Shown: positions 8,122 to 34,569, numbered from the stretch's first letter. The stretch is 35,827 nucleotides of DNA from a virus (IMGVR_UViG_2534681737_000011), one strand, 5' to 3'. The notes: generated by a model not told the origin, from the letters alone. A program made the numbers and translations.

Positions 8122-8616
8122 ATGAGTTTAGAACTAATTCCCTTAGTAATTCGTAAAGGCGAAAAAGTCACGCTGGCGAATGAAGAGGGTGTAACAATTC
8201 AGGTAGGAAATAGTAAAGGTATCATTTATCAGGTTGATGATACTCCGGCTAATCATGAGATTAAAACTCTCTCGTTCGAGATAGGTAAATATACCATCGT
8301 AATAACTTTGGAAGAAGAACTGGTATCAATGCAGGAATTAACTGTATTGCCAGTCTTTGCCAAACAATCCAAAAAAGAATATCTGCGGGAAACTATCGCC
8401 TTAATCGAGCAAGTTATTTTCGCCCGTTTATCTGGGGACGAAGCCGCATTATCTGCAATGACAATAAAAGGGAACTCATTCGCCTATGAGTCATTGGGTG
8501 TTCTCCAGCAATTGAAGACTGATTATGAACGTCAGTTATCTAAATTAATTCAAGCCGAACGACGTAAGCAGGGAATTAGCCCGATTAAAAATATCAAATT
8601 ACGTCTTACGCGATAA
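8122..8616 (+). CDS. hypothetical protein between terminase and portal
   Basis: 164-aa ORF with AAGGGGTAAT ribosome-binding motif; function not recognisable. Confidence 0.55.
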   Translation: MSLELIPLVIRKGEKVTLANEEGVTIQVGNSKGIIYQVDDTPANHEIKTLSFEIGKYTIVITLEEELVSMQELTVLPVFAKQSKKEYLRETIALIEQVIFARLSGDEAALSAMTIKGNSFAYESLGVLQQLKTDYERQLSKLIQAERRKQGISPIKNIKLRLTR

Positions 8617-8626
8617 GGGGTAAATC

Positions 8627-10138
8627 ATGTTTAATCTTTTTCGACGCAATAAGGCGGTAGAAACTCCAGTTAAAACTAATCACCGCCAGCAACAACCAAA
8701 AATTTTCATCGATAAGCAAGTAGAAAAATTCCAGAAAGACCTATCTAAACGAAGTTTAGGTCTGGTTGGTGATCGCATTGATGGATCGCTTCAACAAGAC
8801 ACCATTACCGGAACCTTCAATAAGGCTCTCAAATCGAACGGTAAGCGCCTTTATGATCAGGGTCGTACTCTGGCTATAAACAATGCTGTAGGCAAGCGAT
8901 ACAAGCAGTATATCGTTGACCAAGTTGTTGGTACGGGGCTTGATCCGAAACCATCAATCGTTAAATCAAATGGCAAACTTGACACCGCACTGAATAAGCA
9001 GATCGAGAATGCTTTCTGGAAGTGGGCGCAGAGTGCTAAACGCTTCTCTCGCAACGGTCGCTTTAACTTCCGTGAAATGCTGGCAATGGCAGAATCTGAA
9101 CGTGTTCAGGGTGGAGAATGCTTCATCGTTTTAACCAAAGAGAACAATGAGTTACAAGTTTCTATTCTGTCTGCTGATAGGTGCGACTGGTCGCTTAGTC
9201 GTGAAATAAGCAAAGAACGTGCGATCTATCAGGGGATTGAGTATGACGTAGACACAATGCGCCCTGTAGCATACTGGTTTAGAAAAATCAATCTACTGAC
9301 TCAGACCTACACTGGCGAAAATTATCGCGTAGATGCTTCTCAGGTGTGCCACTACTACCAGCCACTGTGCGCGGAAAGTTTACGTGGTGTGACTGACTTC
9401 CTGCCAGTGATTAAGGATATTGCGCATCAAGAAGCGTTCCGCGAAACCGCGATCGTCCAGAAACGTATTGCAGCTAGCTCTATGGGCTTTATTGAACGTC
9501 CGAAAGATTCTGGTGACGATTTTGATACTGGTGAAGAGGATGAACAATATCAAGCGCCGGAAGTAGTACAGGACTTTGCACCGGGTACTATTCAGGAATT
9601 GCCGGAAGGGGCAACGATCAAGAGCATCCAGGCGACGCAAAGCGGTGATGATTTCAATTCCTTCAATGATGCGATGTTTACTAGCGTATCAATGGGCTTA
9701 GGCGTGTTCAAACAGGGCTTAACAGGAGATTGTTCACAGATCAACTACTCAGCCGCACGTTTTGGGGAACTAACCCAGCGTAACCGCATTAAAGCACTGC
9801 AAAACAAATTGATTGAAACAGTGGTATTGCCAATTTTTGAAGCATATCTACGCCATTATTCCGCGCGTGGTATTGTTCCGATTCGTATTACTGCAATTCC
9901 GCATATTATCGATAATACAACTATTATTCGTCCGCGTTTTGAATCCGTCGATCCTATTAAAGACGTAAACGCCGAGATTGCTTTAATTCAAAATGGTCTT
10001 AAATCACGTACTGCCGTTATATTGGAACGTGGTGATGATCCTGAAAAAGTATTCTCAGAGATTCAAGCCGAAAAGAGCGCACTAAATATTATCGTTAATG
10101 GCGAGGGTGAAGAAAAAAATTCCCCAGCCGATCCCTAA
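8627..10138 (+). CDS. portal protein (lambda-like)
   Basis: 503-aa ORF immediately after the terminase region and before the protease-capsid gene; size and position fit a portal; acidic C-terminal tail. Call rests mainly on synteny. Confidence 0.7.
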   Translation: MFNLFRRNKAVETPVKTNHRQQQPKIFIDKQVEKFQKDLSKRSLGLVGDRIDGSLQQDTITGTFNKALKSNGKRLYDQGRTLAINNAVGKRYKQYIVDQVVGTGLDPKPSIVKSNGKLDTALNKQIENAFWKWAQSAKRFSRNGRFNFREMLAMAESERVQGGECFIVLTKENNELQVSILSADRCDWSLSREISKERAIYQGIEYDVDTMRPVAYWFRKINLLTQTYTGENYRVDASQVCHYYQPLCAESLRGVTDFLPVIKDIAHQEAFRETAIVQKRIAASSMGFIERPKDSGDDFDTGEEDEQYQAPEVVQDFAPGTIQELPEGATIKSIQATQSGDDFNSFNDAMFTSVSMGLGVFKQGLTGDCSQINYSAARFGELTQRNRIKALQNKLIETVVLPIFEAYLRHYSARGIVPIRITAIPHIIDNTTIIRPRFESVDPIKDVNAEIALIQNGLKSRTAVILERGDDPEKVFSEIQAEKSALNIIVNGEGEEKNSPADP

Positions 10139-14001: not shown

Positions 14002-17000
14002 ATGGAGTCTATCCAATTTAAACGCACACAGACGGCTGGTAAAAAGCCAACGCCAGAACAACTGGCACAGGGTGAGGTAGCAATTAACCTTGCCGACCAC
14101 GTAATTTACACCAAAGACAAAAATAACGCAGTAGTTCAAATCAGCGTTTCCCCAGAAAGTCATAATGCTTTAAACACGAAAGTAGACAATAACAAGAAAA
14201 CTACTGATTCTACTATCGCGGCAAATAAAACCGAAGCTGCTAACGCTCTGGCTACCGCTAAATCTGAACTGAATAACACTATTAACACGAAAGATACAGC
14301 GACCAATAAGCGCATTGATGCTACTAACACCACTGTTAGTAACTTAACCCAGACAGTCACGGCAAATAAAACCGACGCTGACACCAAGATCAATAACCTT
14401 ACGGGGACAGTTGCGGCAAACAAATCAGCTATTGAAACTACCGTAGCGAATAACAAACGAGACGCGGACAATAAAATCTCAGCTTTAACCACTACGGTTA
14501 ATGACAACAACACCGCGATCAATAGCCGTGTTGATACCACTAACACCAATGTTAGCAATCTGACCAAAACCGTTACAGCTAACAAGTCTGATGCTGATTC
14601 CAAGATCTCCAGCTTAACGAGTACCGTTGCAGCTAACAAATCAGCCATTGAAACTACGGTAGCGAACAATAAACGCGATGCTGATACGAAGATCACCAAC
14701 TTAACCAACACTGTTAATAGCAACCATACCGCCATTAACAACAAGGTTGACCAGAATAAAACCAGCACAGATGCAGCGATTGCAGCCGCTAACAAGCGAA
14801 TTGATGGTATTGAAGGTAGCAACGATGCTCTTTACATCAAGAAGAACACAAATACCTATCATCACGGCTATCTGTTAACCAAAACAGCTAACTATTTTGA
14901 TGATGCTGGTGCTCGTAACCTTGATTATTTTGGTGCGTTTCGTCCGAACAATGCCGAAGGTTGGGGTAACTTAATCCTTAACATTCCTCATTCTGGCGGT
15001 AAAGCACACGGTCGCGGCTTTGAGTTCCATTATGGGTCTAGCTCATCTCAGGTTAAAACCTATGGCTTTGATAAGGACGGTAACAAGAGATTCAGCTATC
15101 GCATGTACCATGAAGGTGATAAGCCGACTCCTGATGAATTGGGTGTGTATAGTAAAGCCGAAGTTGATCAGATGTTCATCAAGAACGTTAGAATGACCGT
15201 TCCTTCTGGTGATGCTACTCGTGGATACTTCAAGATCGCAACCGCTACGATCCCACAGAATGGTCGAATGGTAATGCTTCGTATCTTCGGTGGTAATGGT
15301 TATAACGTTAACTCTTATGATCAGGTTGACTTTGTAGAAATTGTCATCCGTTCCGGTAACAATAACCCGAAAGGCGTTAGTATTGCTGCTTATCGTCGAA
15401 ATGCTCTGAACGTTCATCAAGTATTTGCGGTTAATACTTCCGGTGATAACTACGATATCTACGTTAACTACGGTCGTTACACCGATAACGTTATTGTCGA
15501 ATACGGTAAAACTGATGGCGTTACTCTGACAGTACATGATGTTCCTGAATTAACTCTCGTTAAACCTTCTGTTGGTGTTACCGATGCTCGTGTTATTACG
15601 ATGTTCAACACCGAAAACAAAGCCGGAACGTTGATGTTTGATAATAACGGTCAAGGAACGTATGATATTATCAGTCTGAATAACTCAACTGATACAAATA
15701 AAAAATATCTTCGTAAATTCCGTAGCAAATCAGCCGAAACAATTTGGCATGAAGTTGTTGAAGGTAGTGTCTATCGTTTAGCTACTGGTGTTACTGATAC
15801 AGCGGATCAATTAAAAATTGATTTTAATGGTGTTACTGTAAACCGCCTTTTTGTTAAGGGTAATAACGCTATTAGAATGGAACGCCGCGACGGGCAAAGT
15901 AACTATATCGAATTCTTTGATTATCGTTCTGGTGCTAATCGTCGTCAGGGTTATCTAGGTTATGGTGATGGTACTACTAACACTGTACAGTTAGTAAATG
16001 AATTAACGGAAGGTAATAACTCTGTAAGACTGGATGAGAACGGTCAAGTTTCATTATCCACTGGCAAAACAAAAATTGTGTACACAAACGGCGAATATGT
16101 TGCTGCATACGCTAACGCATTCCGTATGATTTACGGTAACTACGGTGCATTCTGGCGTAATGATGGTGGTAAAGTTTATCTTCTTTCAACTGCCGAAAAT
16201 GATAAATTTGGTGGCTGGAACGGCAACCGACCATTCATTTACGATTTGACTACTGGTAAAGTTACTTTAGGTGGTGATGGTAACGAGGGTGCATTAGTTC
16301 TCGAACGAGATAGCCGTGCTGCTCGATTTGCTGGTGATATTTACGTCGGTAAAGGAATGTTAACCTTTGATGCTGGTCGATTAAATTCTCGCGACTACTT
16401 CCGGTTTAACCATTGGGGCGATAGCAATAACGCTCGTGATAATATCTTACAGCTTGACGATAGCAAAGGTGCACACTTCACCACTGAACGTACTTTAGCA
16501 ACTGGTGCGATTAAAACTAAATTCTTCGGTGATTTAGAAGCTGCTGGACAAATTCGCTGGGGTAAAGGTACTGCAACTTCTACGTTTAATATTCGTGCAT
16601 GGGGCGCTGATGCTCGTAAACAAGTGTTTGAATGTGCTGATGAAAGCGGTTGGCACTGGTATACCCAACGTGCTGGCGGTCCTGGTACTGAATTAATCGA
16701 GTTTGCTATTAACGGTACTGTTAAGCCTAAAGCAATCCACACTGGAGGCAATATCACCCTGAATGGTGCTGATATTGAGTTTAAGCGCACTGGTAACAAG
16801 CATTTATGGTTTAGAGATCCAAACGGCTTAGAGTTGGGTCTGTTGTACTGCGATGATGCTGGTGTTATGCGTATGCGCGGTGAGAAACAAGCCGAAGTCT
16901 GGAAATTCGGCGGTAAGATGATTCACCTTGAAACGGGCACTGTATCCGGTGGCGGTAATGGTCTTATTCGTGGTAGCGTTGCTGGTGGTAGTTGGGCTAG

Positions 17001-17589
17001 CTGGCGTGATCGTGCTTCCGGTATTCAGGTCGACTGCCAGCAATCAACCGATTCCGCTCATAACATCTGGAAAGCAACCCATCAAGGTAAATATCATATC
17101 GCCGCAATGGGTGTACACGTTCCTAGCGGTACTATCGGTAACGCTCTTGTTCGTCTCCATGTTCATGATGCCGTCTTTGACTTTAACGCATCCGGTGACA
17201 TGACGGCAGGTCGTAACGGTAGCTTTAACGATGTTTACATTCGCTCTGACTCTCGTCTGAAAATTAACAAGGAAGAATTACAGGACGGTGCATTAGAGAA
17301 AGTAAACTCCCTGAAAGTATACACCTACGATAAAGTTAAATCTCTTTCTGATGACACGGTAATTAAACGCGAAGTAGGTATTATTGCTCAGGATCTGGAA
17401 AAAGTATTGCCGGAAGCAGTAGGTATTCAATCTACCGAAGATCCAGAACATCCAGAAGCAATCAAGACTATTTCTAACTCTGCTGTCAATGCTTTAATCA
17501 TCAAGGCTATGCAGGAAATGGATGCTAAGTATCAAGCTAAGATTGATGCACTGACTAAAGAATTAGCCGAACTCAAAGCAACTAAATAA
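14002..17589 (+). CDS. long tail fibre protein with C-terminal S74-type intramolecular chaperone domain
   Basis: 1195-aa ORF with GAGGTGA ribosome-binding site; N-terminal repetitive T/N/K/A-rich region with two tandem units of about 72 aa; C-terminal SDSRLK motif followed by a coiled-coil tail, as in self-cleaving fibre and tailspike chaperone domains. Confidence 0.8.
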   Translation: MESIQFKRTQTAGKKPTPEQLAQGEVAINLADHVIYTKDKNNAVVQISVSPESHNALNTKVDNNKKTTDSTIAANKTEAANALATAKSELNNTINTKDTATNKRIDATNTTVSNLTQTVTANKTDADTKINNLTGTVAANKSAIETTVANNKRDADNKISALTTTVNDNNTAINSRVDTTNTNVSNLTKTVTANKSDADSKISSLTSTVAANKSAIETTVANNKRDADTKITNLTNTVNSNHTAINNKVDQNKTSTDAAIAAANKRIDGIEGSNDALYIKKNTNTYHHGYLLTKTANYFDDAGARNLDYFGAFRPNNAEGWGNLILNIPHSGGKAHGRGFEFHYGSSSSQVKTYGFDKDGNKRFSYRMYHEGDKPTPDELGVYSKAEVDQMFIKNVRMTVPSGDATRGYFKIATATIPQNGRMVMLRIFGGNGYNVNSYDQVDFVEIVIRSGNNNPKGVSIAAYRRNALNVHQVFAVNTSGDNYDIYVNYGRYTDNVIVEYGKTDGVTLTVHDVPELTLVKPSVGVTDARVITMFNTENKAGTLMFDNNGQGTYDIISLNNSTDTNKKYLRKFRSKSAETIWHEVVEGSVYRLATGVTDTADQLKIDFNGVTVNRLFVKGNNAIRMERRDGQSNYIEFFDYRSGANRRQGYLGYGDGTTNTVQLVNELTEGNNSVRLDENGQVSLSTGKTKIVYTNGEYVAAYANAFRMIYGNYGAFWRNDGGKVYLLSTAENDKFGGWNGNRPFIYDLTTGKVTLGGDGNEGALVLERDSRAARFAGDIYVGKGMLTFDAGRLNSRDYFRFNHWGDSNNARDNILQLDDSKGAHFTTERTLATGAIKTKFFGDLEAAGQIRWGKGTATSTFNIRAWGADARKQVFECADESGWHWYTQRAGGPGTELIEFAINGTVKPKAIHTGGNITLNGADIEFKRTGNKHLWFRDPNGLELGLLYCDDAGVMRMRGEKQAEVWKFGGKMIHLETGTVSGGGNGLIRGSVAGGSWASWRDRASGIQVDCQQSTDSAHNIWKATHQGKYHIAAMGVHVPSGTIGNALVRLHVHDAVFDFNASGDMTAGRNGSFNDVYIRSDSRLKINKEELQDGALEKVNSLKVYTYDKVKSLSDDTVIKREVGIIAQDLEKVLPEAVGIQSTEDPEHPEAIKTISNSAVNALIIKAMQEMDAKYQAKIDALTKELAELKATK
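14320..14750 (+). repeat. two tandem copies of an about 216-bp coding repeat inside the tail fibre gene
   Basis: Protein units IDATNTTVSNLTQTVTANKTDADTKINNLTGTVAANKSAIETTVANNKRDADNKISALTTTVNDNNTAINSRVD and TTNTNVSNLTKTVTANKSDADSKISSLTSTVAANKSAIETTVANNKRDADTKITNLTNTVNSNHTAINNKVD; also visible at nucleotide level. Confidence 0.75.
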
Positions 17590-29397: not shown

Positions 29398-29426
29398 ATT
29401 AAAGCGCCTCTAGTGGGCGCTTTTTT
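29398..29426. terminator. bidirectional rho-independent terminator between convergent genes
   Basis: AGCGCC-tctagtg-GGCGCT hairpin flanked by an A-run upstream and a T-run downstream. Confidence 0.65.
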
Positions 29427-29427
29427 G

Positions 29428-30927
29428 TTATATAGCAATTGTTTTAGTTGCATAGCTGAACTTGTCGGTTAGATAATAGCGGATTCTCTCAAGTGCATGT
29501 TTTACCGCATAATTTTTATGCTTGACTTTTCCGTTACGACCGAATATACACAGATGATCGATAAGATCCCAGACCGTTGCAATGTCTTTCGAACCATGTT
29601 TACGCAATGCACGACCGATACTCTGACGAACGATAGTTGATTCCTTCACTGGATGACCGAAAATAACATGGTGCAAATTCTTAATTGAAACACCAGTAGA
29701 GAACACACCATAGGATGCAACGCAAATGATCCCTGTTTCCCCTTCCGCTAATTTCTTAAATTCATCACGTTCTTCTGTCTTAACCCCACCGTCAATATAA
29801 TAAACCTTGTCGTGTACCTTCTGTAACGCATCATACATAAGTTTTCCGTGCTTAGTGTTGCGGAACATCAGGAATACGTTTTCGCCCTTCTTAGCGAGTT
29901 TTAGCGCCAAATTACAAGCAAACTTATTTCGTCGTGGATTAGACGTAATATACTTGATCTCTTCCGCATATTCTCGCCCCTTAACCGCGCTACATTCCTC
30001 ATCGGTATAACGAAGGAAAAGACAGTTAATTTTCAGTTTTGTCACCTGCCCTTCTTCCATCAGGCGGTCAATGCTAACGATCTTAGAAATATCACCGAAA
30101 AGCCCGACATACTGCATTAAATGGCACTTTGATTCTTTCGGGGAACCAGTCATACCGATTTTGAACTGGCAATGATTCATTCCGTTAATGATATTGGTAA
30201 TATTTTTGGCACTAGCCTTATGCGATTCATCAACTATCAACATTCCATATTGTCGGAACCATTCAGGAGGCATCTTGCAAGCTGATTGCCAGGTACTAAC
30301 CGTGATTAACCTGTCTCCCGGATGTTTCCCGCTACCACTCATCATTGTATGAATTGCTTCATAAGGGAATAGCCTATAATCGATGAAATCATCCCTCAGT
30401 TGAACCACTAGCGATGTAGTCGGAACAATGATTAGAACTTTTCCGGTGTAATGCTCTAAGTACCAACGAGACAGCATACAAGCAATCAATGACTTACCCG
30501 CACTGGTAGGAAGAACCAGCATTCTACGGCGATTATGGATACCCTGAAAGACTGCCTCCCTTTGATACCAATAAGGATTGATTTTATTGCTACCGGAATA
30601 CACTTCTAAGGAATCAATCCATTCATTAATCGCGTCTTTGGTTACATCTTCCTTATCAAGCAATCGCGGGTCAATCCAGACTGAATAGCCCATATTTTTA
30701 ACGAAGACACCCAATGTTTTTAATAGTCCAATTGGTAGGGTATTTTCATGCGTAAACAGTCTTATTCGTCCATCCCAGCCGGAATACTTGTAGCGGGGGC
30801 TAAACTTAGCCCCTTCAACCTCAAACGAGAAATAATCTCTTAATTCCATTCCGATAGAAGGAGAGCAATCAACCTTAACGAAACTGTAATCTTGAAAATG
30901 AATTTTAATATCTTGCATTAGTTCCAC
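29428..30927 (-). CDS. uvsW: ATP-dependent DNA helicase, UvsW-like (superfamily 2)
   Basis: Walker A (LPTSAGKS), DExH box (IVDESH) and C-terminal helicase motifs (VASYGVFSTGVSIKNLHHV); N-terminal region resembles the T4 UvsW N-domain as recalled from memory. Confidence 0.75.
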   Translation of the reverse strand: MELMQDIKIHFQDYSFVKVDCSPSIGMELRDYFSFEVEGAKFSPRYKYSGWDGRIRLFTHENTLPIGLLKTLGVFVKNMGYSVWIDPRLLDKEDVTKDAINEWIDSLEVYSGSNKINPYWYQREAVFQGIHNRRRMLVLPTSAGKSLIACMLSRWYLEHYTGKVLIIVPTTSLVVQLRDDFIDYRLFPYEAIHTMMSGSGKHPGDRLITVSTWQSACKMPPEWFRQYGMLIVDESHKASAKNITNIINGMNHCQFKIGMTGSPKESKCHLMQYVGLFGDISKIVSIDRLMEEGQVTKLKINCLFLRYTDEECSAVKGREYAEEIKYITSNPRRNKFACNLALKLAKKGENVFLMFRNTKHGKLMYDALQKVHDKVYYIDGGVKTEERDEFKKLAEGETGIICVASYGVFSTGVSIKNLHHVIFGHPVKESTIVRQSIGRALRKHGSKDIATVWDLIDHLCIFGRNGKVKHKNYAVKHALERIRYYLTDKFSYATKTIAI

Positions 30928-31487
30928 TCCACACTTGCAATATTCTTTATATTGTTTAGTGATTTATTGCAGTAGTGGAATGTTTCAGTTTTGCCGTATT
31001 CAATCCCGCCTATACCCACATCCAGTAATCTCTTTATTGCTCTTTCAGTGGCTAAAGCATGTTTCATTGATGGCATTTCACCAGCAAAGACAATATCAAA
31101 GTCATGACCGGGATTGCGTACACCTAGATTAATGCGTCGCTTGATGATTGACTTTGTAACACCAAATTTACCAATATCCCCTGATTTCATTACATAGAGA
31201 TAAGGCACACCCGCTTTATATTGAAAGTAATCACTTTTGAGACAAGCACAGCGTTTACCTTCATTAAGCAGGTTAGTAGCTGATTTGTCGGCTCTATTGC
31301 CACATCGGGTACATGTAAGAGCAATTCTTGAATGAAGCCCTTTAAACTCACCCAGAAAGCCATGAAAGACTAATGGTAAGTCCTTATCTTTGATGTGAGT
31401 CAGAATGCGTTGTTCTAATGCCGATGGAGTTACAGCACGGGAGGATTTAGGAGTAAAAACAATATCTTTAGCCATTACTGGAATCAT
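30918..31487 (-). CDS. zinc-finger / GIY-YIG-like (T5orf172-type) putative endonuclease
   Basis: GTGAGGT ribosome-binding site before the ATG at 31487; Cys-rich segment CTRCGNRADKSATNLLNEGKRCAC; C-terminal YLYVMKSGDIGKFGVTKSIIKRRINL fits the GIY ... YIG ... R pattern; 3-prime end overlaps the helicase gene by 10 nt. Confidence 0.55.
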   Translation of the reverse strand: MIPVMAKDIVFTPKSSRAVTPSALEQRILTHIKDKDLPLVFHGFLGEFKGLHSRIALTCTRCGNRADKSATNLLNEGKRCACLKSDYFQYKAGVPYLYVMKSGDIGKFGVTKSIIKRRINLGVRNPGHDFDIVFAGEMPSMKHALATERAIKRLLDVGIGGIEYGKTETFHYCNKSLNNIKNIASVEWN

Positions 31488-31529
31488 ATAGACCTCACTT
31501 TTTAACTTATAGGCATAACCTCAATATGG

Positions 31530-31558
31530 TTGGTTTGGGATTTAGGGTCGCGTATTAT
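31530..31558 (+). promoter_or_regulatory. candidate sigma70 promoter (-35 TTGGTT, 17-bp spacer, -10 TATTAT)
   Basis: Located in the 153-bp divergent intergenic region, about 80 bp upstream of the 31641 start. Confidence 0.4.
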
Positions 31559-31640
31559 ACACATCCAGATAGAGAATGCAATAGTAAGACAATTTTCTCT
31601 GATAAATAGTAGTGAACTTATTATTTTAGAGGAAACTACT

Positions 31641-32816
31641 ATGAAACTTGCTTACGCTGCCGAAATTCCTTTTGTTAAGAAAACTCGCGGTTTATCGCCG
31701 GAAGAGTACCAACAACGAATCATCGCTAAACTGGAACCTGCTTTCGTATTTGGTGGATTTATCCTACCGTGGAAGGGTAATCACACTTACTTTCGAATCT
31801 ACAATTTAGACACACAAGAATATAAGGACTACAAATTACGCAAACTGGAAGATACTAACGGGGGTGAGTTATTCCAGACTGAAAAGGCTGTATGGTTGAA
31901 AATGGAATCTCGTTGTAATGAGAAGGGAAAGAAATTCCTCGGATGGCAAGGAGAATGGAAAGGGCGAAATAGAACGAAAGCCCGTGTTTTGTGCCCTGAA
32001 CACAATCAAATCATGACGCCATCTCTATTACATGCTCTCAAAGATGATTTCGATTTTGATTGCAAAATCTGTATGGCTGAAAAATCCCAACGGGTAAGAA
32101 GTGGCAAGACTTTTGATGAAGTTATTAAGGACAAAGAGACAATCATCAATGCACGTTGCGAGAGTACGCCTTACACCTTCAAAGGATTCATCATAAACAC
32201 CCCACACCTAAAGGATGTTAAATTTAAAACCTATTGCAAGACACATAACCACGAATGGGAATCTCATTTAAGATGTGCTGATTCTTTCACTTGTCCGCTT
32301 TGCATTAAAGACCAACTGGTGCAACTGTCTAACCGGACTTATCAGGGTAAGGCTAGTTTCTACATTCAATTATTAGATGACAAATTTATTAAATTTGGAA
32401 TCACTACCCGGAAACCAGAAGAACGAATGAGAGAGCAAACCAGAAAGAGCAACTTCACTCACCGCTTAATCTTTACTCATGAGTTTGAGGATGGTTGGAA
32501 AGCCGTTGATTTAGAGCATGAAGTAAAACAACGCTTCAAGACTCATGCAGCACCCTACAAAGATTTCAAGGATGGATGGTCGGAAACTCTGACTATTGAT
32601 GAGTTGCCACACTTACAGCAACTGGTTTATGACTACCTAACCAATCAACCGGACGAGGCTAATATGTGGGTATCCCCGAAAGATGTATTTGATGACGATA
32701 CATTCAAGCTACATACTCACTTCTACGGCATCAATAAACCGGAATTTTTCTGTATTGATGACGACAGTCCTGATTTAATGGATGAATACTTTAATGCTCT
32801 CTTAGATGCTGCCTAG
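31641..32816 (+). CDS. zinc-finger / GIY-YIG-like (T5orf172-type) putative endonuclease, divergent paralog-like partner
   Basis: Start chosen at the ATG with AGAGGA ribosome-binding site (31627-31632) rather than the track start at 31530; repeated Cys/His modules (CPEHNQ ... CKICMAEK; CKTHNHEW ... CPLCIKDQ); C-terminal FYIQLLDDKFIKFGITTRKPEERMRE fits the GIY ... YIG ... R ... E pattern. Confidence 0.55.
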   Translation: MKLAYAAEIPFVKKTRGLSPEEYQQRIIAKLEPAFVFGGFILPWKGNHTYFRIYNLDTQEYKDYKLRKLEDTNGGELFQTEKAVWLKMESRCNEKGKKFLGWQGEWKGRNRTKARVLCPEHNQIMTPSLLHALKDDFDFDCKICMAEKSQRVRSGKTFDEVIKDKETIINARCESTPYTFKGFIINTPHLKDVKFKTYCKTHNHEWESHLRCADSFTCPLCIKDQLVQLSNRTYQGKASFYIQLLDDKFIKFGITTRKPEERMREQTRKSNFTHRLIFTHEFEDGWKAVDLEHEVKQRFKTHAAPYKDFKDGWSETLTIDELPHLQQLVYDYLTNQPDEANMWVSPKDVFDDDTFKLHTHFYGINKPEFFCIDDDSPDLMDEYFNALLDAA

Positions 32817-32828
32817 CGCAATTAAATT

Positions 32829-32853
32829 AAAAAGGGGTACAGATGTACCCCTT
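32829..32853. terminator. bidirectional terminator between convergent genes
   Basis: GGGGTAC-agat-GTACCCC hairpin with an A-run on the plus side (a U-run for the minus-strand recombinase transcript). Confidence 0.6.
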
Positions 32854-32889: not shown

Positions 32890-34569
32890 TTAAATTCCAA
32901 ATTCCTGTAATGGACCTGGTATTTCTTCCTCTGGTTTCCAGTTCTTATCTGTCAGCATGTCTAAACATGGATGCAGAACAAGCCCGTTGCTTTCCAGAAT
33001 CTGCCTATCATTGATAGTTTTCAAATCGACAAAGATTTGTCCTTTCCTCGTTCCTCTTGAATTTTCTATTACAACTCTCTGGGTCTTTCCATCGATGTAT
33101 TCCAGTACAAACAAGTTTTTGTTTCTGTCAATCCTGCTACACCCGATCCGCTTTAGAGCTTGCTTAATCTTAAACCGGACCTTTAGTCGTTCCTCGTTGT
33201 AAACATCTTCTAAATCAAATTCTGCGAGCTTCTCCCAGCCTTGAGAGTCAACAGAATACATTTCCTCTTCTGCCATCTTGATCTGATTGTAGAGTGTTTC
33301 ACGCTCGCTATTGAGGGTAGTAATCTGATCGGCTAGCTCCTTCGTTGCTCCTGTCATAGCAGAAAGGGCAATCAGGTTATCAATCTTGCGTGATATTTCA
33401 TCAACCTGTACTTTCAACGCCGGAACCGGATTAGCCTTATCCTCAGCAATCCAGATTTTATCAGCCAGCAATTGCAATACAGCTTTCTCTAATTGATCAC
33501 CTCGAAAACTCCAGTTTGGATGCTCGCAATCAAGTCTACGTGAACGGGTCGCATCACATGTATAACGATACTGGTCAGAACGTTTGTTCGTTCCCTTCAC
33601 TTTAACCATAGCGCAACCGCAATGATCACATTTCAATAGGCCAATACCACTAAGCAGGGGGATCGGTTTAACTTCTTCCTTGTCTCCAAAGTTCCATGCT
33701 CTAGCACCAATATTTTTCTTAAGGTGATAGAACGTAGGGTCATCAATAACACGAGGGTAATAATCCTTTAACTCATAGTTAACGCCATCTACAGATATTT
33801 CCTTGATACCAATCAAAGCGCGGGTATGAAACAACCTTTCAACCATTGCCCGTGACCATTTTGAATGCTTCTTGTTGCTAACCGCTGGTGGCGGTGTATA
33901 AGTCTCGTTAAGGTGATCCAGTATCTCGGCGGTTGAACGTCCATTCTTCCGCAATTCCACAATCTCCTGAACAACAGGGAAGTATGTAGGATGAGGCAGC
34001 ACATAACCGGAAGTGGTATCCGTCCACCACATATTCTTTCCAACTTCCTCGATTGCCACTGCCGGATTCTGGGGATTTTCTTGATGGGCTTTAATCTTAA
34101 TCAGTGCGCTTGAGTTAGTACGATTGCGCTTAGTCTGGCTTTCCTCATTACCACGGATGAATAAAAGGATGGAGAACATCAGGTCCATCGGGTTAGCGGT
34201 AACAGTATCCAGCGAGTAGATCTTGTTATCCATGCCAGTAACAATGGTTATCCCCCTACGGATTATTGAAAGGAATAACTCCTGCGCACTGACAATATCG
34301 GCACGGGATAAACGGTCCAAGTTTTCGATGAATAGCCAGCTACCAACAGGAACGGATCTACCTATTGCATCAAGGAAACGAGATAGCGCCCCTGTTTTAG
34401 AGTTAGCACCTTTAAACGCAGATACACCCAGATCCTGATAATCATTTACCAGTTCTAAGTCATACTTTGCCGCAATCTCTCTCGCCATCCTGATTTGTCG
34501 TTCATAACTCGAACCATCACTCTGACGCATAGACGAGAAGCGAATATACGAATACAGTTTAGTTTTCAT
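32890..34569 (-). CDS. large serine recombinase (integrase or invertase family)
   Basis: N-terminal resolvase catalytic motif YSYIRFSSMRQ and DRLSR motif; large C-terminal extension with Cys cluster (CDHCGC ... C ... C) and coiled coil as in large serine recombinases. Start at ATG 34569; an upstream in-frame TTG at 34584 is the alternative. Confidence 0.8.
   Translation of the reverse strand: MKTKLYSYIRFSSMRQSDGSSYERQIRMAREIAAKYDLELVNDYQDLGVSAFKGANSKTGALSRFLDAIGRSVPVGSWLFIENLDRLSRADIVSAQELFLSIIRRGITIVTGMDNKIYSLDTVTANPMDLMFSILLFIRGNEESQTKRNRTNSSALIKIKAHQENPQNPAVAIEEVGKNMWWTDTTSGYVLPHPTYFPVVQEIVELRKNGRSTAEILDHLNETYTPPPAVSNKKHSKWSRAMVERLFHTRALIGIKEISVDGVNYELKDYYPRVIDDPTFYHLKKNIGARAWNFGDKEEVKPIPLLSGIGLLKCDHCGCAMVKVKGTNKRSDQYRYTCDATRSRRLDCEHPNWSFRGDQLEKAVLQLLADKIWIAEDKANPVPALKVQVDEISRKIDNLIALSAMTGATKELADQITTLNSERETLYNQIKMAEEEMYSVDSQGWEKLAEFDLEDVYNEERLKVRFKIKQALKRIGCSRIDRNKNLFVLEYIDGKTQRVVIENSRGTRKGQIFVDLKTINDRQILESNGLVLHPCLDMLTDKNWKPEEEIPGPLQEFGI

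Follow-up and report, generated by a model that had tools for sequence, protein, structure and literature searches.

Comparison with described systems

The free-standing GIY-YIG gene segE of phage T4 lies between inh and uvsW, and its product cuts the uvsW gene of phages that lack segE (table in PMC2988022, with reference to Kadyrov 1997). Homing endonuclease genes (HEGs) of the T5orf172 type encode one or more CapR, DUF723 or DUF4397 zinc fingers arranged as 'beads on a string' (Barth 2023, PMC10448857). The CapR zinc finger is a CxxC...CxC motif, the Cys residues of which are required for DNA binding (Netter 2021, PMC8096241), and Odn of phage ICP1 is a T5orf172 nuclease which has been domesticated against the satellite PLE (PMC10448857). 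Here we compare with these systems two divergently oriented genes, ORF A and ORF B, which are located between a uvsW helicase gene and a large serine recombinase gene in the viral DNA IMGVR_UViG_2534681737_000011 (35,827 nt; this whole stretch is called the window below). In our reading they are probably free-standing, site-specific endonuclease genes of the HEG type and belong to the CapR-zinc-finger/T5orf172 family. The two genes and their domains are the following:

30918..31487, minus strand: ORF A (189 aa), with a single CapR-type zinc finger ahead of a nuclease domain of the T5orf172 type (GIY-YIG superfamily)
31248..31391, minus strand: zinc-finger (CapR homology) module of ORF A, aa 33-80, CxxC...CxC motif
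30972..31205, minus strand: nuclease core of ORF A, about aa 95-172, beta-beta-alpha-beta-alpha, LYV...GKFG...R...E...GKTETF
31641..32816, plus strand: ORF B (391 aa), with three CapR-like repeats ahead of a T5orf172/MUG113 nuclease domain, the protein ending in an acidic, disordered tail
31641..32330, plus strand: predicted DNA-binding region of ORF B, about aa 1-230, made up of CapR-like repeats, of which two have a CxxH...CxxC zinc site
32352..32645, plus strand: nuclease domain of ORF B, about aa 238-335

Relative to uvsW, ORF A is placed and oriented like T4 segE, and its product is likewise a GIY-YIG-superfamily nuclease fused to a DNA-binding region. It differs from SegE in belonging to the T5orf172 branch and in carrying a CapR zinc finger, and whereas cleavage and gene conversion were demonstrated experimentally for SegE, they are predicted for ORF A. 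In the Krischvirus phage G5211 a SegE-like GIY-YIG gene occupies the slot between inh and uvsW. Whisky and JK32 carry, as an optional insert between uvsW and uvsW.1, the phage gene most similar to ORF B; RB49 has neither of the two.

With the CapR/T5orf172 HEGs of lytic phages (ICP1 Gp53/121/130/165/174 and relatives of T5 orf141/orf172) both genes share the architecture of zinc-finger repeats plus nuclease, and they are equally free-standing, located beside conserved genes and at the edges of exchanged DNA, and swappable with other HEGs. They differ in being only 25-30% identical to any sequenced phage protein, in residing in a temperate, integrated prophage whereas the known ones are found in lytic phages, and in the loss of the zinc ligands from the first ORF B repeat. 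The words prophage, temperate, uvsW, RB49, Krischvirus and helicase are all missing from the text of Barth 2023. Proteins of this kind have been published before, with ORF A and ORF B as ordinary members; the new part is the context, that is a temperate prophage with a captured uvsW (and uvsY in relatives), a Krischvirus tract, and T5orf172 genes in the segE slot, a combination that we did not find in the literature searched.

The CapR protein of PLE, a phage satellite of Vibrio cholerae, contains a homologous zinc-finger DNA-binding module with paired Cys motifs. It is, however, a transcriptional repressor without a nuclease domain, whereas ORF A and ORF B both retain a conserved one and on this ground do not fall among the repressors of the CapR type. 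Odn of ICP1 and the Odn-like proteins of coliphages, which are domesticated and cut a satellite origin, resemble our proteins in combining a T5orf172 domain with a swappable DNA-binding module and in their involvement in conflicts between mobile elements, but in ORF A and ORF B this module consists of CapR zinc fingers, and a profile search for RepA_N, the mark of the Odn type, gave no match in either of them. In contrast to the GIY-YIG defence nucleases PD-T4-3 and PD-Lambda-1, neither protein matched a defence model of PADLOC 2.0 at E<=0.1, and NCBIfam likewise yielded no match to a defence system. A marginal match to PD-Lambda-1 (E 0.005) was noted for a replacement allele in another prophage.

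Domain composition and fold of ORF A and ORF B

Both proteins had been described from the sequence alone as Cys/His modules followed by a GIY-YIG or T5orf172-type domain, and profile matches, invariant residues, structure prediction and a fold search all agree with this sequence-only reading. The AlphaFold2 models of both proteins match GIY-YIG nucleases first, and the Tyr, Lys-x-Gly, Arg and Glu residues of the nuclease motif are invariant within the families. In the predicted models the nuclease domains have the beta-beta-alpha-beta-alpha core of the GIY-YIG superfamily and can be superposed on solved GIY-YIG domains. Neither protein matched the canonical GIY-YIG family of the I-TevI/Seg type (PF01541) at E<=1, and the SegE-like protein of phage G5211 showed no sequence relation to the ORF B family profile (hhalign probability 0.1%); the membership is therefore one at the level of the superfamily, in the T5orf172 branch. 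In both proteins the second nuclease motif reads K-F-G instead of Y-I-G. A search of the PDB sequences with both family profiles found no solved relative; only the fold comparison was informative here.

ORF A matched the Pfam family CapR (PF21817) with an E-value of 2e-5 and 25.1 bits (cut-off 24.2), and PHROG 681, annotated as 'endonuclease', with 6e-19. Invariant in its family are C59, C62, C80 and C82 of the zinc finger and, in the nuclease domain, Y98, G106-K-x-G109, R117, E148, G165 and E168-T-F170. The AlphaFold2 model has a mean pLDDT of 83.9. Among phage proteins, those closest to ORF A are small 'putative homing endonucleases' encoded by T5-like phages, with about 27% identity.

For ORF B the CapR match (E 4e-10, 40.1 bits, cut-off 24.2) covers two stretches, and the C-terminal domain matched MUG113 above the cut-off (E 3.7e-6, 27.9 bits, cut-off 22.3), and T5orf172 just below it (E 1.5e-3, 19.5 bits, cut-off 20). 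ORF B matched PHROG 681 with 2e-43, and in RefSeq the protein is labelled 'GIY-YIG nuclease family protein'. Two zinc sites of the type CxxH...CxxC, C118/H121/C141/C144 and C199/H202/C218/C221, are invariant in the family and the first repeat is without zinc ligands. The invariant nuclease motif comprises Y241, K251, F252, G253, R262, E292, D311, G312, W313, E315 and T316. The model has a mean pLDDT of 77.8, with the repeats, each made up of a helix and beta-hairpins, at pLDDT 83-93. In the fold comparison GIY-YIG nucleases matched best, with SLX1 at 6.8, HIGLE at 6.7, EF2693 at 5.2 and I-TevI at 4.3. Compared with 50,697 phage records, ORF B was most similar to a 361-aa ORF of the Krischvirus phages Whisky and JK32 (29% over 338 aa, E 9e-35).

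The two proteins thus have the composition of CapR/T5orf172 HEGs: CapR is above the cut-off in both and the Cys/His ligands of the N-terminal zinc-finger modules are invariant, the C-terminal domain is of the T5orf172/MUG113 type (GIY-YIG clan), and the genes are free-standing beside a conserved gene and variably present or replaced. The ORF A and ORF B families align with each other over the first repeat with an hhalign probability of 94.6%; judged by their sequences, the two are distant paralogues. The ratio of non-synonymous to synonymous substitution rates (dN/dS) between the window and close relatives is 0.04-0.11 for ORF A and 0.10 for ORF B. These values are close to those of the integrase and the endolysin. 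Both are real genes under purifying selection and not decaying pseudogenes in the lineage of the window.

The family as a whole is large, as an exhaustive profile search yielded 2904 cluster representatives at E<=1e-3, of which 632 remain at E<=1e-10; the number of repeats differs among them. Matches in IMG/VR comprised copies of the same prophage family, a contig of Krischvirus size (L035) encoding a protein 28% identical to ORF B, and a metagenomic relative (L024). Nothing was found when the GTDB species representatives were scanned with the ORF A profile, and the window contains no further member of the CapR/T5orf172 family.

Regarding the C-terminus of the B-type proteins, we observed that several alleles (L003 5000-5998, L009 8160-9173, P0010) end with an acidic tail ...ELDLSPLE(A/D/T)L, which may be a protein-docking motif. 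The ORF B of the window ends differently, with ...EYFNALLDAA.

Presence, loss and replacement of the two genes

We determined the distribution of the genes over 5426 complete E. coli genomes, 58 of which carry the prophage backbone. uvsW is present in 17 of these genomes and ORF A in 13, all 13 being uvsW-positive; ORF B was found 12 times at full length and once as a fragment. In four genomes uvsW is kept and both ORF A and ORF B are gone, and in all three of these loci that were fetched remnants of both genes could be recognised. The locus that was mapped (L004, CFSAN061761) retains 104 nt of the ORF A 3' end, a 102-nt intergenic piece and 21 + 9 nt of ORF B, with 6-bp microhomologies at the junctions, and the spacing between helicase and recombinase is the same in the other two (L010, UTAK-14; L011, ES2). 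As the remnants are joined at microhomologies, these prophages are deletion derivatives, and the possibility that they represent empty sites was rejected.

Besides loss, the slots show replacement of their occupants. Prophages with integrases of 97-99% aa identity carry ORF A alleles of 46% and B-slot alleles of only 26-32% identity between the same flanks. In L014, for instance, the integrase is 97% identical to that of the window, ORF A 46% and the B-slot gene 32%. The diverged ORF A alleles still have in common the 22 C-terminal residues, on the side of uvsW. Strain GN4741 lacks both uvsW and ORF A, and its B slot is occupied by a 332-aa CapR/MUG113-like gene with 26% identity to ORF B, which is preceded by the same 5' leader as in the window (31593-31648, 91% identical) and followed by the same 3' flank. 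A third B allele of 337 aa is present in FDAARGOS_1267 (L009) together with an ORF A of 93% aa identity. This prophage encodes a further family member of 348 aa with three CapR fingers (E 1e-28) and a T5orf172 domain beyond the integrase (L009 10954-12000), so that its integrase is flanked on both sides by T5orf172 genes. In Salmonella, one prophage keeps the trio of uvsW, A and B with aa identities of 82%, 51% and 64%, respectively, and 77% for the integrase, and in another uvsW is truncated after codon 159 and followed by an A-like gene.

Comparison of the same locus in relatives therefore gives a polymorphism of loss and allele replacement at fixed slots. Fixed slots with swappable occupants and occasional loss are the pattern reported for HEGs at 'HEG-islands' (Barth 2023, PMC10448857). 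We also considered ORF B as a directionality factor of the integrase; this was rejected because nearly identical integrases (97-99%) pair with B alleles that are 26-32% identical.

The uvsW gene, its Krischvirus tract and further T4-like DNA

The helicase gene next to ORF A contains a segment of different similarity to Krischvirus:

29428..30918, minus strand: uvsW, 496 aa when read from the ATG at 30918, the gene immediately following ORF A, UvsW_N with E 2e-34
29551..30117, minus strand: recombination tract in uvsW, 567 nt with 18 mismatches to RB49 (96.8% identity) and abrupt borders

The helicase of the window is a true T4-type UvsW, and the gene matches 56 phage records, nearly all of them RB49-like Krischvirus. 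The remaining parts of uvsW are 56-75% (gene positions 1-800) and 61-78% (last ~200 nt) identical to RB49. All Krischvirus phages examined have the tract in common, whereas the prophage variants L009 and L014 have a uvsW without it that is about 70% identical to Krischvirus throughout. The likelier direction of transfer is therefore from Krischvirus to the prophage, and the simplest reading of the tract would be a recent conversion of the prophage uvsW by Krischvirus DNA. The tract directly documents that a T4-like lytic phage and a temperate prophage have recombined recently. The opposite direction, with Krischvirus G37-3 as recipient of prophage DNA, had been considered on account of a 97.5% match and was withdrawn, since the tract is shared by all examined Krischvirus and missing from the other prophage variants. 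The uvsW of G37-3 (L008 2366-3979) contains several frameshifts as well as a duplicated stretch of about 190 nt, and was labelled only 'similar to helicase' by the depositors; either the gene is truly a pseudogene or these defects stem from the assembly.

Relatives of the window carry uvsY at the same place, as a fragment in L009 and in full in L014-L017 and in L024, the metagenomic relative, which shows the same arrangement of ORF A, uvsW and uvsY. Beside the full uvsY and uvsW of the E. coli prophage L014, the gp51/gp27 junction is represented by two fragments in tandem, each of about 275 nt (8574-9120), one of them 96.8% identical to G5211 and the other 98.2% identical to Whisky. A tail-fibre gene of the window (14002-17589, 1195 aa) has about 80% nt identity over ~2.5 kb to gp37, the distal long-tail-fibre gene of RB49-like Krischvirus, and is thus a second segment common to the siphovirus-type prophage and T4-like myoviruses. 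From the uvsW tract, the uvsY/gp51/gp27 DNA and the tail fibre it follows that the temperate family carries a T4-like island and keeps recombining with Krischvirus.

Proposed homing and competing explanations

Between the options that had been named from the sequence alone, the homing endonuclease is the one best supported by the slot polymorphism, the position in the segE slot and the ORF B homologue beside Krischvirus uvsW, and an anti-defence role found no support. We infer nuclease activity, target sites and homing of both proteins along the following lines. The zinc-finger repeats, one in ORF A and three in ORF B, would read a long DNA site, and the C-terminal GIY-YIG-type domain would cut near this site. 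Repair of the break by recombination with the homologous copy would lead to preferential inheritance of the nuclease gene together with its flanks, in the manner of intron-less homing or marker exclusion. In analogy to segE, ORF A would most likely recognise uvsW or its 5' flank in genomes without ORF A. The slot of ORF B is a different one, located between ORF A and the integrase. The two genes lie at the edge of the T4-like island (uvsW in the window, with uvsY and pieces of baseplate genes in relatives) that is shared, and still recombined, with Krischvirus, and they probably mark its boundary.

Several observations weigh against homing as the explanation. The match of ORF A to Pfam T5orf172 is weak (E 0.1, 13.5 bits) and lies under the cut-off of 20. 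We found no report of experimental homing by any T5orf172 gene in the literature, and Barth 2023 proposes homing for them. The 29551-30117 tract is not contiguous with ORF A, being about 0.8 kb away, and can therefore not be attributed to it. Among the loci examined there was no naive, uninvaded allele, as those without the two genes are deletions. Finally, a B-type gene fills its slot in almost every prophage variant of E. coli and Salmonella, which hints at a benefit for the phage beyond what would be expected of a purely selfish gene.

Because of the missing uninvaded allele, the nearly always filled B slot and the distance of the tract we keep as the main rival a role in interference, in which the two proteins would be domesticated nucleases directed against competitors. 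They would cut sites in superinfecting phages, such as the uvsW region of Krischvirus, and would be made in the lysogen or during lytic growth, protecting the lysogen or biasing co-infections as Odn does against PLE; the diverged uvsW copy of the prophage itself would be the uncut allele. We consider this explanation rather unlikely. In its favour, the genes lie in an accessory region between the lysis genes and the integrase where nearly all variants have a B-type gene, the deeply diverged alleles between identical flanks resemble the outcome of diversifying selection, both genes are under purifying selection, and Odn shows that a T5orf172 nuclease can become domesticated (PMC10448857). Moreover, the prophages hold several near-identical Krischvirus fragments (the uvsW tract, gp51/gp27 in L014, the tail fibre), from which it follows that both types of phage meet in the same cells. 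On the other hand, PADLOC recognised neither protein, and the same pattern of polymorphism was reported for selfish HEGs (Barth 2023, PMC10448857). Interference and homing are not mutually exclusive, so that the difference is partly one of emphasis.

Two other explanations concern functions within the prophage or without cleavage of a target site. ORF A, and perhaps ORF B, might act together with UvsW on branched DNA as accessory factors of prophage recombination or replication and would then be structure-specific rather than sequence-specific selfish nucleases, with ORF A translationally coupled to uvsW. The best structural matches, SLX1 and HIGLE, are indeed structure-specific GIY-YIG nucleases, and ORF A adjoins uvsW with the TAATG overlap at every locus seen. 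This linkage is, however, equally expected of a HEG that targets uvsW, as described for segE (PMC2988022), and zinc-finger arrays favour recognition of sequence over structure. Since ORF A is missing beside uvsW in every Krischvirus phage examined and in four E. coli prophages, B-type genes are also found where there is no uvsW, and ORF A alleles of only 46% identity pair with similar UvsW proteins, we regard such a role as improbable. Still less do we expect the proteins to be non-cutting DNA-binding regulators that, like PLE CapR, repress promoters in a competing phage or in the prophage itself. The zinc-finger module is homologous to that of a proven repressor (PMC8096241) and the shared divergent control region makes autoregulation possible, but CapR has no nuclease domain and both ORF A and ORF B keep theirs; the putative catalytic Tyr, Arg and Glu are invariant in alleles down to about 35-40% identity, which would not be expected if catalysis were dispensable.

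Returning to the endonuclease genes as HEG-type elements, the locus is a natural example, tractable in E. coli, of the idea that nuclease genes mark and perhaps drive exchange between unrelated phages, which in this case would be lytic and temperate ones. The natural alleles, ranging from 26 to 99% identity, form a panel for the question of how zinc-finger arrays set the specificity of T5orf172 nucleases. A more speculative extension, to which we assign a small chance, is that the prophage keeps a T4-like 'homology platform' together with rapidly diversifying zinc-finger nucleases as a device for interference with, and gene capture from, Krischvirus. The nucleases would cleave the DNA of the infecting phage within or close to the genes held in common, with repair proceeding via the prophage copy. 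If this were true, the lysogen would be protected or the co-infection biased, the nuclease genes would move to lytic phages while lytic-phage DNA would stay in the prophage, and the temperate phage would serve T4-like phages as a HEG reservoir and itself profit from these genes.

Gene starts and control region

The ORF scan and profile matches confirmed the divergent gene pair and its flanking genes as they had been read from the sequence, i.e. a helicase, recognised by UvsW_N, on one side and a large serine recombinase on the other. The elements around the two genes are:

31488..31640, no strand: divergent intergenic control region, of which the 3' part (31560-31661) is kept in relatives with both genes lost or replaced
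32832..32853, no strand: GC-rich hairpin where ORF B and the recombinase gene converge, within the flank that is conserved on replacement of ORF B
32890..34569, minus strand: large serine recombinase (prophage integrase), the second conserved flank of the ORF B slot

ORF A starts with an ATG at 31487 preceded by GAGG; in RefSeq the start is set 4 codons further downstream, giving 185 aa. The ATG of ORF B at 31641 is preceded by GAGGAA and results in the same 391 aa that had been given before. A longer, mechanically derived reading of ORF B from a TTG at 31530 (428 aa) was dropped, as the homologues all begin with MKLA..., corresponding to the ATG at 31641. For the helicase, the start is almost certainly the ATG at 30918 and not the GTG at 30927, because the N-terminus MQDIK... 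is identical to that of RB49 UvsW. Hence the ORF A stop and the uvsW start more likely overlap by 1 nt (TAATG), in place of the 10 nt proposed by the sequence-only reading; co-transcription of ORF A and the helicase is plausible. The promoter scan reported no site in the intergenic region, and a repeat search for operators gave nothing convincing there. By eye, a candidate sigma-70 promoter for ORF B, absent from the promoter scan, can be seen at ~31530-31558 (TTGGTT, 17 nt, TATTAT).

The prophage

The window is a complete-looking temperate prophage of the siphovirus type from E. coli/Salmonella, with genes for terminase, portal, a capsid-protease fusion, tape measure, tail tip and endolysin. 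It is integrated in ycdX by the large serine recombinase and adjoins ycdY and the csg operon; in Salmonella the same chromosomal site is occupied by the same prophage family. The right-hand part of the window is present in 58 of the 5426 E. coli genomes.

At 662-1603 two long ORFs overlap almost fully on opposite strands (313 aa on the minus and 311 aa on the plus strand), and the 313-aa ORF had no PHROG match. The 668-aa protein encoded at 10184-12190 matches both major-head and head-protease PHROG families, which suggests a fused protease-capsid gene. Between the convergent endolysin and uvsW genes there is a perfect GC-rich hairpin with T-runs on both sides (29401-29423), which looks like a bidirectional terminator and marks the left edge of the T4-like insert.

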